Positions 7,472 through 22,116 of a stretch of DNA of 46,580 nt are shown here, piece after piece. Both the position numbers and the translations under genes were made by a program. This stretch comes from Escherichia coli. Lineage in GTDB: Bacteria; Pseudomonadota; Gammaproteobacteria; Enterobacterales; Enterobacteriaceae. A model generated the notes under the pieces. It made no database searches. It saw only the letters and a program-made list of their open reading frames with translations, and was not told the origin of the DNA. Each line of letters begins with the position of its first letter. Position 1 is the stretch's first letter. Location: assembly GCF_003334255.1 (NCBI RefSeq), contig NZ_QOWU01000043.1; one strand, written 5' to 3'.

Positions 7472-8305
7472 GAACACACCTTTATCTTTTATCGCTGTTC
7501 AGTATGAGTGATTACCTGTCGATTCCTGAGCACACATAAGGGGTAACCATAAACATCAGGGATGCCATACGTATAACATCCCACATCACTATCAAGAAGA
7601 TTATCTTTACCTCTGATGCTCGCTCAAAAACAGTTACGCTAAATACCTTAAAAAGGTAATCACAAGTCAAACTCAGGAGATAATCACGCAAGAATGCAAT
7701 ATTAAAATTCAGATACTCATTTTTGGTAATAAAGAAGTAGTTGGACTATTTCAATATTTATAATTTCCCACTACATACTGGCATCCATTCATGAGCAAAG
7801 GCGCATTATATGAATTTAACAATCCAGATCAACTGAAAATACCTCTCCCTCATAAACACATAGCGTCAACATTCAATGACATAATGAGTAAAGATGTTGG
7901 TTATGCATACGTATCATTACTCTATGCCTGTCCCTTAAAAACCCACTCATTAAGACTGAATCCATTCAGCAAATGATAACCAATATTATAGCAATGCCAA
8001 TAAAAACAATATTTAAAACATTCAATAAAATATCACACACAGATAATTAAACCTTAAATAACAAATGGTTGCGTTAATTTCAGTTGATTTACGATACACA
8101 TTTCTCATGAATAATGCGTCATTTCAAATGATCAGCAATATTTACATTAAATAAGACTAAACTTATTGAACATTCGCAACAGCCCAAATGTAGGTTTTGG
8201 GCTGCAATAGTTCTTTTCTTTTTTATTATCTGTTGTCTGGTAATCATCAATAGATACTAAGGGCTTAACCGTATAGATATAACGTATCAAGAGGTAGGAG
8301 AAACA

Positions 8306-18760: not shown

Positions 18761-19615
18761 TCAGGGTGCAAGCTGTCTGACCCTTTCCCGATATTCTCCC
18801 GGGGTACAACCAAACTCGCGGACAAACGCCTTGTGAAAAGATGATTCACTGGCATAGCCTACTGACTCAGCGATCACCACAACAGGGAGCGTTTCCCGGG
18901 AAAACATCTGGGCCGCTATTTGTAGACGCAACTTTGTTAATACAGCCAGCGGCGTGGTTCCGGAAACATCACGGAAAAGCTGGGCAAAACTTGCCCGGGA
19001 CATGTGAGCGATGCTGGCCAGCGATTCGACGGTCCAGGCGTGTCCTGGCATTTCCAGCATTTGCTGTATTACCGCACCAAGACGTGGATGCAGAAGCAAA
19101 CTGAGAATGTTTTTCTCAGTATTAACCTGTGCAATCCACTCACGCACCGCGAGGGTAAAGAATGTAGCGCAGATCTGGCTACACAGTGCATCCACTCCCG
19201 GCATTGCCGATCTGGATTCCTGTTGTAAAAACGGGATCGCCTCCCTCAGCCAGTTATATTCCACGCTGTGGTTAACCGGTGCTAAAAACAGCGTTTCCGG
19301 CAAAGACGTTAAAAAATAACGCGCCGAATGTTGCAACCGAAGAGTGCCGCAGACAATACAGGTCGATTCATTATCGACATGACTCAGGCGATGAGCTGAA
19401 TTTTGTGGTAGCAGGACCACATTTCCCGGGCGTAATGTAAAAATCTCCCCCGTCGGCATTTCCAGCTTCGCCGCTCCTTGCGTTAACGCATGCCAACGAA
19501 TAACCGATAATTCCCCGGCACCATGTGGAAGCTGCCAGTCACTTCCTAACACGCAATTCTTATCGATCGTTCCTTGTGGAGCGTTAAGCATCAACAAACG
19601 GCTAAGGGCATCCAT
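18761..19615 (-). CDS. rclR: AraC-family reactive-chlorine-responsive activator RclR (YkgD)
   Basis: 284-aa ORF with C-terminal AraC-type HTH; divergent from rclA. Confidence 0.9.
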   Translation of the reverse strand: MDALSRLLMLNAPQGTIDKNCVLGSDWQLPHGAGELSVIRWHALTQGAAKLEMPTGEIFTLRPGNVVLLPQNSAHRLSHVDNESTCIVCGTLRLQHSARYFLTSLPETLFLAPVNHSVEYNWLREAIPFLQQESRSAMPGVDALCSQICATFFTLAVREWIAQVNTEKNILSLLLHPRLGAVIQQMLEMPGHAWTVESLASIAHMSRASFAQLFRDVSGTTPLAVLTKLRLQIAAQMFSRETLPVVVIAESVGYASESSFHKAFVREFGCTPGEYRERVRQLAP

Positions 19616-19840
19616 ATCAGACTCCTGAGTGGTTTTTGATTACAAACACCAACAATCTTAGTAAATAACTAATCTAATACCATCAAATAGTTAATCATGA
19701 TTTTTGTTTTGTGATTCTGATTAAGAAAAAGAAAATATCAGACGATAAGACAAAATATCAAGCGTTGTGAAGAAATGTTATTTGCTCTTTTGCGTCTATA
19801 GTCATGATGTCAAATGAACGCGTTTCGACAGGAAATCATC

Positions 19841-21166
19841 ATGAATAAATATCAGGCAGTGATTATTGGTTTTGGCAAGGCTGGAAAAACATTAGCCGTC
19901 ACGCTGGCAAAAGCAGGTTGGCGAGTGGCTCTCATCGAACAATCAAATGCAATGTATGGCGGGACCTGTATTAATATCGGCTGCATCCCAACCAAAACAT
20001 TGGTTCATGACGCACAGCAGCACACAGATTTTGTCCGTGCCATACAGCGTAAAAATGAAGTGGTTAATTTTTTACGTAATAAGAATTTTCATAATCTTGC
20101 GGATATGCCCAATATCGACGTGATCGACGGCCAGGCGGAGTTTATCAATAATCATAGCCTGCGTGTTCATCGGCCTGAGGGAAATCTGGAAATTCATGGC
20201 GAGAAAATTTTTATTAATACCGGTGCACAAACCGTGGTTCCGCCAATTCCTGGAATTACCACCACGCCAGGAGTATATGACAGCACCGGATTACTTAATC
20301 TAAAAGAATTGCCTGGGCATTTAGGTATTTTGGGCGGCGGATATATTGGCGTTGAGTTCGCCTCTATGTTCGCTAATTTTGGCAGCAAGGTAACCATTTT
20401 AGAAGCAGCTTCGCTGTTTTTGCCTCGGGAAGATCGGGATATTGCTGATAATATCGCGACGATTTTACGCGATCAGGGCGTCGATATTATCCTCAATGCC
20501 CATGTGGAGCGAATCAGTCACCATGAAAATCAAGTGCAAGTGCATAGCGAGCACGCCCAACTGGCGGTGGATGCACTGTTAATAGCTTCCGGTCGTCAAC
20601 CGGCTACCGCTTCGTTACATCCAGAAAATGCCGGTATCGCAGTAAACGAGCGCGGGGCAATTGTCGTTGACAAGCGATTACATACCACCGCAGACAATAT
20701 TTGGGCGATGGGAGATGTTACCGGCGGGCTGCAATTTACTTACATATCACTGGATGATTACCGCATTGTACGTGATGAGTTACTGGGTGAAGGCAAACGT
20801 AGTACTGATGATCGGAAAAATGTGCCTTATTCCGTATTTATGACACCGCCCCTGTCCAGGGTTGGTATGACAGAAGAACAAGCCAGAGAGAGTGGTGCTG
20901 ATATTCAGGTGGTGACATTGCCTGTAGCTGCAATTCCGCGTGCCAGAGTGATGAATGATACTCGTGGGGTATTAAAAGCGATTGTTGATAATAAAACCCA
21001 ACGTATGTTAGGGGCATCACTGCTGTGTGTTGACTCCCACGAGATGATCAATATAGTGAAAATGGTGATGGATGCCGGGCTGCCTTATAGCATATTACGC
21101 GATCAGATATTTACTCATCCGTCGATGAGCGAATCACTCAATGATCTATTTTCATTAGTCAAATAA
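19841..21166 (+). CDS. rclA: pyridine nucleotide-disulfide oxidoreductase RclA (YkgC)
   Basis: ORF 19814..21166; start set at MNKYQAVIIGFG (441 aa); FAD-binding GxGxxG and redox-active CINIGC motif. Confidence 0.9.
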   Translation: MNKYQAVIIGFGKAGKTLAVTLAKAGWRVALIEQSNAMYGGTCINIGCIPTKTLVHDAQQHTDFVRAIQRKNEVVNFLRNKNFHNLADMPNIDVIDGQAEFINNHSLRVHRPEGNLEIHGEKIFINTGAQTVVPPIPGITTTPGVYDSTGLLNLKELPGHLGILGGGYIGVEFASMFANFGSKVTILEAASLFLPREDRDIADNIATILRDQGVDIILNAHVERISHHENQVQVHSEHAQLAVDALLIASGRQPATASLHPENAGIAVNERGAIVVDKRLHTTADNIWAMGDVTGGLQFTYISLDDYRIVRDELLGEGKRSTDDRKNVPYSVFMTPPLSRVGMTEEQARESGADIQVVTLPVAAIPRARVMNDTRGVLKAIVDNKTQRMLGASLLCVDSHEMINIVKMVMDAGLPYSILRDQIFTHPSMSESLNDLFSLVK

Positions 21167-21274
21167 ACTCAAAATCAGACGCCAGAACAAATATTCTGGC
21201 GTCTCAGAGAAAAGAATCTTATTAATTCTCTGTTACTCTATAACTTCTTAATCACTTCATTGATGGTATTTTAT

Positions 21275-21511
21275 ATGTTTAAAAAATCTGTTTTATTTGC
21301 AACACTATTATCTGGCGTTATGGCATTTTCCACCAATGCAGATGATAAAATAATTCTGAAACATATCAGCGTCTCGTCAGTATCAGCATCACCGACAGTT
21401 CTGGAGGATACCATTGCTGATATAGCCAGAAAATATAATGCTTCATCCTGGAAAGTCACATCGATGCGAATTGATAATAATTCAACCGCAACAGCAGTAT
21501 TGTATAAATAA
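21275..21511 (+). CDS. rclB: small periplasmic protein RclB (YkgI, DUF1471)
   Basis: ORF 21260..21511; start set at MFKKSV (78 aa); N-terminal signal peptide. Confidence 0.8.
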   Translation: MFKKSVLFATLLSGVMAFSTNADDKIILKHISVSSVSASPTVLEDTIADIARKYNASSWKVTSMRIDNNSTATAVLYK

Positions 21512-21522
21512 GGATGTTCACA

Positions 21523-22116
21523 ATGGAAAAATACCTGCACCTGTTAAGTCGGGGAGATAAAATTGGCCTGACATTGATTCGTCTGAGTATTGCAATTGTT
21601 TTTATGTGGATTGGGTTATTAAAGTTTGTCCCTTACGAGGCAGACAGCATTACACCATTCGTCGCAAACAGTCCACTAATGTCGTTCTTTTATGAACACC
21701 CGGAAGACTATAAACAGTATCTGACTCACGAAGGCGAATACAAACCAGAAGCAAGGGCATGGCAAACGGCCAATAATACCTATGGTTTTTCCAACGGTCT
21801 TGGCGTCGTGGAGGTGATTATTGCTCTGCTGGTTTTGGCTAATCCTGTCAATCGCTGGTTAGGTTTATTGGGAGGACTGATGGCATTTACCACGCCGCTG
21901 GTAACACTCTCATTTTTAATCACCACCCCGGAGGCATGGGTACCCGCATTGGGTGACGCTCATCATGGTTTCCCTTATTTATCCGGTGCTGGTCGCCTGG
22001 TATTGAAAGATACTCTGATGCTGGCAGGTGCAGTCATGATAATGGCAGATTCGGCGCGGGAAATTCTTAAACAACGCAGTAATGAATCCAGTTCAACGTT
22101 AAAAACTGAATATTGA
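21523..22116 (+). CDS. rclC: inner membrane protein RclC (YkgB)
   Basis: ORF 21514..22116; start set at MEKYLHL (197 aa); hydrophobic. Confidence 0.85.
   Translation: MEKYLHLLSRGDKIGLTLIRLSIAIVFMWIGLLKFVPYEADSITPFVANSPLMSFFYEHPEDYKQYLTHEGEYKPEARAWQTANNTYGFSNGLGVVEVIIALLVLANPVNRWLGLLGGLMAFTTPLVTLSFLITTPEAWVPALGDAHHGFPYLSGAGRLVLKDTLMLAGAVMIMADSAREILKQRSNESSSTLKTEY

Follow-up and report, generated by a model that had tools for sequence, protein, structure and literature searches.

A conserved bipartite element upstream of rclA as putative operator of the reactive-chlorine-specific activator RclR in Escherichia coli

Dimeric regulators of the AraC family often use two similar half-sites located approximately 21 bp apart, typically arranged as a direct repeat and comprising about 17-20 bp each. 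In the marbox one subunit uses its two helix-turn-helix motifs to read two recognition elements, which lie about one helical turn from each other. E. coli has three known HOCl-specific transcription factors, RclR among them, and the HOSCN reductase RclA is also under the control of RclR.

RclR has been described as an AraC-family activator which upon oxidation binds to its target promoter and activates rclABC (PMC9600549, citing Parker et al. 2013). Its residues Cys21 and Cys89 are redox-sensing, the switch being the Cys21-Cys89 disulfide (PMC7464077). Furthermore, HOCl was reported to induce rclR in E. coli (PMC7950407, citing Parker 2013). A study from 2025 referred to RclR as 'thought' to work at the rclA promoter and remarked on unexplained complexity (PMC12096828). 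No binding site, footprint or motif of RclR was found in the literature searched, the coverage of which does not extend to Parker et al. 2013.

All positions given here refer to the window, i.e. the whole stretch of E. coli DNA analysed (46.6 kb). The region of interest (19616-19840) corresponds exactly to the intergenic region between the divergently transcribed genes rclR (minus strand) and rclA (plus strand), and the locus comprises the following features:

18761..19615, minus strand: rclR, AraC-family reactive-chlorine-specific activator, 284 aa (ORF, NCBIfam, Pfam, RefSeq)
19622..19626, minus strand: AGGAG, Shine-Dalgarno sequence of rclR (direct sequence reading)
19841..21166, plus strand: rclA, flavoprotein oxidoreductase, 441 aa, ATG at 19841 (ORF, NCBIfam, RefSeq)
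21275-21511, plus strand: RclB open reading frame (NCBIfam model)
21514-22116, plus strand: RclC open reading frame (NCBIfam model)

All four predicted proteins, RclR, RclA, RclB and RclC, score above the curated NCBIfam cut-offs, with 557 bits for RclR against the equivalog model NF040475 (cut-off 400) and 870 bits for RclA against NF040477 (cut-off 740). Based on NCBIfam and the RefSeq annotation of identical DNA, which is assigned to rclR/rclA in 5113 of 5426 complete E. coli genomes, the divergent rclR / rclABC layout is that of the rclR-rclABC reactive-chlorine locus of Enterobacteriaceae. The Pfam domains Cupin_6 and HTH_18/HTH_AraC were detected on proteins identical to RclR, and its AraC-type double helix-turn-helix domain is likewise indicated by the NCBIfam equivalog and by DNA-binding-domain matches in the PDB. 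The PDB search returned no structure of RclR or of an RclR-DNA complex, its matches being distant AraC-family DNA-binding domains only; the RclR DNA-binding domain is distantly matched by SoxS (E = 4e-6).

The rcl locus is decaying in some strains (H1, i.e. NZ_CP126598.1, L030 and L031). In strain Ec1120 rclA is split by an IS1 element, in the genome carrying P0063 it is distributed over three ORFs, and in Escherichia sp. MR an IS1 remnant is located at the contig end upstream of rclR, where no rclA gene was called.

The original prediction had pointed out two copies of AAAATATCA upstream of rclA and proposed them as half-sites of RclR. The two copies are indeed present on the plus strand at exactly 19732-19740 and 19752-19760, with a start-to-start distance of 20 bp, and according to a repeat finder the similarity extends to the abutting 20-mers 19727-19746 and 19747-19766, which share 15 of 20 positions. 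In 5000 dinucleotide-preserving shuffles of the 226-bp region (31% G+C) an exact direct repeat of at least 9 nt occurred anywhere in 17% of the cases; 0.9% had one at a spacing of 18-23 bp and 0.2% at 20-21 bp. A 15/20 match at such a spacing was obtained in 1.0%. Since the spacing criterion was chosen post hoc, after the repeat had been noticed, these statistics are of moderate strength only, and the repeat is moderately improbable by chance. The entire window contains AAAATATCA three times compared to 0.55 expected occurrences; the third exact copy is located at 8027-8035.

Within E. coli the distal copy is polymorphic, as T19738 is replaced by C in most strains. The perfect-repeat allele, represented by a 61-mer with the K-12 T at 19738, was found exactly in 1420 of 5127 complete-genome records, and the C allele, which turns the distal copy into AAAATACCA, in 3637 of the 5127 (about 71% of complete E. 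coli genomes). The latter was also carried by all four further E. coli strains of the alignment. In E. albertii the distal copy reads CGATCGTCA and the proximal one AAATTCTTA, the flanking boxes described below being intact, and the repeat is absent from every other genus in the orthologous alignment. The perfect repeat is thus a minority allele of one species, given 1420 as against 3637 exact records.

A scan of species-representative genomes with alignment of RclR orthologues yielded 23 orthologous rclR regions (RclR identity of 52-72%) from ten genera, comprising Salmonella, Citrobacter, Proteus, Enterobacter, Yokenella, Shimwellia, Ewingella, Pantoea and others. The divergent neighbour of rclR is rclA in all 23 loci except Shimwellia. 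Anchored at a common AGACG, the spacers can be aligned free of gaps over approximately 90 bp, resulting in the consensus (at least 70%) TT.AGACG.T..GACA..AA.....GCGTT..GGA.A, which is followed by 21 unconserved bases and TATA.T. The conserved block has a length of about 37 bp and consists of two boxes with 8 nt of A/T-rich spacer between them. In relation to the repeat the features are as follows:

19737..19775, plus strand: conserved 'RclR box', proposed RclR operator, ATCAGACGATAAGACAAAATATCAAGCGTTGTGAAGAAA (cross-genus alignment, information profile, PWM)
19740..19752, plus strand: box 1, AGACGATAAGACA, consensus AGACK-N4-RACA, columns of 1.2-1.9 bits
19761..19773, plus strand: box 2, AGCGTTGTGAAGA, consensus AGCGT-N3-GGA-N-A (alignment, information profile)
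19732..19740, plus strand: distal AAAATATCA, 5' part outside the conserved block, only ATCA overlapping the left edge of the block
19752..19760, plus strand: proximal AAAATATCA, constituting the A/T-rich spacer of the block, with weak conservation in the form of A-rich sequence only

Across the 23 regions the mean information per column amounts to 1.55 bits in AGACGATAAGACA, 1.17 bits in GCGTT, 0.91 bits in the -10 hexamer, 0.77 bits in the proximal and 0.65 bits in the distal AAAATATCA (0.46 bits without its last two bases), and 0.20-0.26 bits in the flanks and the promoter spacer. Many of the 23 training sequences originate from Citrobacter and are non-independent; when related genomes were down-weighted by clade the ranking of the segments remained unchanged. 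In an alignment of Escherichia and close relatives (K-12, O157:H7, two B2/UPEC-type strains, a divergent E. coli, E. albertii, Escherichia sp. MR and Raoultella) CAGACGATAAGACAAA and AAGCGTTGTGAAGA are identical throughout Escherichia. The degenerate consensus of the block matches nowhere else in the window, with 0.03 matches expected.

The candidate operator (19737-19775) overlaps both copies of AAAATATCA, and the reading in which the 9-mers are RclR half-sites, spaced by two helical turns and each bound by one of the two subunits of a dimer, can refer to the exact repetition at 20 bp, its rarity at 18-23 bp spacing in the shuffles, the resemblance of the wider 20-mers and the position of the repeat inside or adjoining the conserved block. 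However, within the block the columns of the 9-mers show some of the lowest conservation, AAAATATCA is not conserved in orthologous promoters which are accompanied by an orthologous regulator, and a second site of the same kind at 21174-21212 (see below) also lacks such a repeat. Taking furthermore into account that the distal copy differs in the majority of E. coli genomes and that both copies are lost in E. albertii, where the boxes persist, we regard this reading as very unlikely. It is not the repeated words that are conserved, and the 9-mers, real as they are, are unlikely to be the recognition sequence and would rather represent flank and spacer of the E. coli lineage. At most they contribute an A/T-rich context without sequence specificity, and they may add something locally in E. 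coli, the block of which is identical to itself at 12 of 19 positions at an offset of 20. The original prediction thus placed the probable RclR control element in the correct 40 bp, accurate to a few bases, and on the correct side, upstream of rclA, whereas the 9-mers as its recognition sequence fail with respect to conservation.

Each box comprises two sub-elements at a distance of 8 bp, which are GAC..GAC for box 1 and GCG..GGA for box 2, and the centres of the boxes are about 21 bp apart. Such a layout could accommodate one subunit on each box. The boxes themselves are not significantly alike: the best self-similarity of the profile in direct orientation at offsets of 18-23 gave p = 0.38 for the first 24 sequences, and for 35 sites in 19 clade groups p = 0.18 was obtained at offset 21 in direct orientation and p = 0.04, uncorrected, for an inverted arrangement. 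The strongest self-similarity of the profile was found at offset 8, corresponding to GAC..GAC of box 1.

The block is located directly next to the putative core promoter of rclA:

19774..19779, plus strand: AATGTT, nominal -35 of the rclA promoter, assigned from a 17-bp spacer to the -10
19797..19802, plus strand: TATAGT, -10 hexamer of the rclA promoter, TATA.T at fixed distance in the ungapped alignment

The nominal -35 follows directly on the last conserved base of the block (block end 19773-19775), matches TTGACA poorly and is unconserved, with columns of about 0.2 bits or less. A -10-like hexamer, defined by the bases A and T at positions 2 and 6, respectively, and by four or more of six matches to TATAAT, is found exactly at +35 from the G of box 2 (19762) in 28 of 37 sites (22 profile sites, the held-out loci and the second sites). 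At each of the remaining offsets within +26 to +43, such a hexamer is present in 4 of the 37 at most. The block hence abuts, in fixed phasing, the -35 of a predicted sigma-70 promoter without a good -35, as required for a class II site. A consensus scan of the spacer identified no sigma-70 consensus promoter for rclA, its matches inside the box being on the minus strand only; the missing consensus promoter and the poor -35 are as expected for an activator-dependent promoter. The arrangement is that of such a promoter with the activator placed against the -35, and the transcription start of rclA is predicted, from the -10 alone, at about 19808-19810.

Several observations connect the block with the regulator. 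In Shimwellia rclR is divergent from a homologue of rclC and the block is kept in front of rclC; in Shimwellia pseudoproteus (L016) the box is found at 2864-2902, with rclA approximately 2.7 kb away. A search of 1.84 billion cluster representatives furthermore revealed distant full-length RclR homologues with 30-56% identity, in all of which Cys21 and Cys89 are kept; P0122, P0127 and P0138 belong to the held-out set. For the held-out test the PWM was trained without the loci to be tested, and both strands of the whole locus were scanned. In L019, L029, L032, L038 and, weakly, L037 the best match is located in the spacer upstream of rclR and points away from rclR. The scores of these upstream sites amount to 14.3 in Ewingella (next best -3.6), 13.6 in L038 (37% identity; next best -1.2), 19.7 in Raoultella, 38.4 in E. 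albertii and 1.4, a weak match, in L037. The upstream site of L040 (56% identity) scores 24.0 and is second only to the second box of the same locus. The block thus recurs beside distant RclR homologues of 37-56% identity, and each of the held-out sites upstream of rclR has a -10-like hexamer at +35. The box of L038 precedes a gene for a membrane protein instead of rclA, next to the 37%-identical RclR homologue, and at the second sites it precedes rclB or rclC. Because of its presence in front of rclC in Shimwellia, of the membrane-protein gene in L038 and at the second sites, the block appears to be tied to RclR rather than to rclA.

No convincing PWM match was detected in a scan of the whole loci L036 (45% identity) and L039 (36%, different gene context). 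A box candidate chosen by eye in L036 was discarded, as the PWM gave no support, and the anchor AGACGTTATCACA initially assigned in Ewingella was rejected; the PWM site there adjoins the start of rclR and has TAAAAT at +35. In Tenacibaculum (Bacteroidota), the homologues of which are 28% identical, the best PWM match in L024 and L025 (2929-2967, beginning with TTTAGACTAATGGATA) is located just upstream of the regulator gene. Given the low scores of 11.4 and 6.2 and the A/T-rich genome, these matches may be due to chance.

Direct observations at this locus are the repeat, the pattern of conservation, the fixed phasing of the -10 hexamer and the co-occurrence with RclR. Based on these, the region is likely to represent an RclR-dependent promoter of rclA with a putative RclR operator of the AraC-family class II type as its core (19737-19775), and the 37-bp element is most likely the place at which RclR binds for switching on rclA. 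From the sequence we infer RclR binding to the block, its stoichiometry, the transcription start and the mechanism of activation as follows. Oxidised RclR would occupy the box at roughly -72 to -36, probably as a dimer whose subunits would each contact one box. From its position abutting the -35, RclR could recruit or activate RNA polymerase in the manner of other AraC/XylS-family activators acting on class II promoters. Of the two copies of AAAATATCA, one straddles the left border of the box and the other fills the spacer. The operator model names the bases concerned and thereby makes the action of RclR at the rclA promoter directly testable, and the operator profile can be used in genome-wide searches for further members of the regulon.

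The opposite strand of the spacer has to be considered as well, since rclR must have a promoter somewhere in it. The repeats could be read as a leftward promoter of rclR, with TTGATA in the proximal copy as -35 and TGaTATTTT in the distal copy as extended -10, separated by 18 bp. The consensus scan lists this pair with 9 of 12 matches and a TG in front of the second hexamer, the base of TGn that is free to vary is the one affected by the common T-to-C polymorphism at 19738, and rclR was reported to be induced by HOCl. In the scan this reading appears on the minus strand inside the block as TTGATA-16/18-GATATT/TATTTT. However, its three promoter-like sites are not significant compared to the expected 1.3 +/- 1.1, the leftward elements are absent from E. 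albertii and all other genera, and a leader of approximately 110 nt would be implied for rclR. Moreover, a promoter inside the proposed RclR box should be occluded by bound RclR, which is at odds with the reported induction. It therefore seems unlikely that the repeats serve as the rclR promoter.

A related possibility is that the conserved block is not the site of a transcription factor but, on the opposite strand, the rclR core promoter, made up of TTCACA and TATCGT at a distance of 18 bp. This pair is likewise listed by the scan with 9 of 12 matches, and in Enterobacter Ag1, the spacer of which has 125 bp, the block is only 17 nt away from the rclR start codon. Because of this distance the rclR promoter must overlap or adjoin the block where the spacer is short. 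The pattern of conservation does not follow the hexamers, though: AG (19740-19741) and GACA (19749-19752), both outside the hexamers, are nearly invariant, compared to about 0.6 bits for the first T of the would-be -10 (19747). In Pantoea the hexamer reads TTGCGT without the A at position 2, and the block also occurs in front of rclB or rclC, where there is no divergent gene. We consider a core promoter of rclR a very unlikely reading of the block and retain that of a probable RclR operator.

Around the rclR Shine-Dalgarno sequence AGACTCCTGA is conserved in nearly all orthologues, and ATATCAGAC occurs both in the start and ribosome-binding region of rclR (19614-19622) and at the left edge of the box (19735-19743). 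In the orthologues with short spacers (L019 2962-3000, L040 1962-2000, L037 1961-1999) box 1 reads AGACTCCnGAACA, overlaps the Shine-Dalgarno region of rclR and directly abuts its start codon. The species with long spacers including E. coli show a AGACTCCTGA remnant at the rclR start which lacks box 2. A further stretch at 19676-19700, TAATACCATCAAATAGTTAATCATG, is common to the spacers of Escherichia and most Citrobacter and was not found beyond these; it could be the rclR core promoter or the site of another factor. No consensus promoter was called at 19676-19700.

The second box mentioned above was detected between rclA and rclB:

21174-21212, plus strand: weaker RclR-box-like element, ATCAGACGCCAGAACAAATATTCTGGCGTCTCAGAGAAA, PWM 19.4, best non-training match of the window
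21234..21239, plus strand: TACTCT, -10-like hexamer exactly at +35 from GCGTC, candidate internal rclB promoter
1427-1445 in L001 and 1398-1415 in L007, minus strand of those loci: terminator-like hairpins, also present in L003, L004, L006 and L011-L013

This element begins eight bases past the rclA stop codon, is identical to the first box at 25 of 39 positions and contains a perfect inverted repeat of 11 bp (21177-21187 / 21194-21204). Matches in orthologous position were obtained for six Citrobacter loci (PWM 10-16), Salmonella possesses the same element, and in L040 a strong second box (PWM 30.7) precedes rclC. The hexamer at +35 is stronger in Salmonella and Citrobacter (TATTAT or TATTCT). 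Since a comparable score of 19.8 was encountered once inside a coding region elsewhere, the case for the second box rests on its repeated orthologous placement and its phasing, which suggest a candidate internal RclR-dependent promoter of rclBC.

Between the rclA stop codon and the second box, Salmonella and Citrobacter possess a terminator-like hairpin including a T-run, and rclA and rclBC look like separate transcription units there. The rclA-rclB spacer of E. coli has no such terminator. Its second box is predicted to form an RNA hairpin of -19.3 kcal/mol (z = -6.2) without a T-run on the coding strand, and a scan of 19500-21400 against Rfam (E <= 1) yielded no RNA family. In E. coli the second element may consequently be an internal rclB promoter, an attenuating structure, or both. 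No mention of an rclB promoter was found in the literature searched. RNA levels of rclBC are approximately tenfold below that of rclA (PMC12096828).

We therefore tentatively propose, at somewhat less than even chances, that the locus is served by two RclR-box promoters of the same architecture, one in front of rclA and one in front of rclB or rclC, instead of a single RclR-activated rclABC operon. If true, the two units would be parted by an intrinsic terminator in Salmonella and Citrobacter, while in E. coli, which lacks it, the second box would double as a hairpin; the lower amount of rclBC RNA could be explained by the two-promoter model. In the short-spacer species the location of the first box over the ribosome-binding region of rclR would couple the activation of the targets to the control of rclR.

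Compared to the systems described so far, the design proposed for the rclA operator is ordinary for the AraC family and not surprising. AraC at araI1-I2 of araBAD shares with RclR the N-terminal cupin-type sensor and the C-terminal double helix-turn-helix. Similar to the RclR block, araI comprises about 37 bp and extends as far as the -35 region of a sigma-70 promoter whose -35 is weak, and as in the case of rclA the site belongs to a divergently transcribed regulator gene. In contrast, araI is composed of two similar 17-bp direct repeats, a likeness which the two RclR boxes lack at the level of significance, and AraC responds to sugar and loops the DNA to the distant O2, whereas RclR is switched by the Cys21-Cys89 disulfide (PMC7464077).

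The sites of XylS at Pm and of other class II activators such as RhaS and MelR are bipartite like the RclR block, with a promoter-proximal part which abuts or overlaps the -35. Their activation requires a fixed phasing to the core promoter, to which the +35 spacing at the putative RclR boxes corresponds; their motifs are unrelated in sequence to the RclR box. RclR of Pseudomonas aeruginosa has the peroxiredoxin-like gene rclX as its target, and rclR is expressed constitutively there, with no autoregulation (PMC7950407).

The marbox of MarA, SoxS and Rob resembles each single RclR box in having two recognition elements, which in the RclR boxes are sub-elements 8 bp apart. However, the marbox has a length of about 20 bp and is bound by a monomer, whereas the RclR element is twice as long, which implies two subunits, and RclR possesses a dimerisation-type cupin domain.
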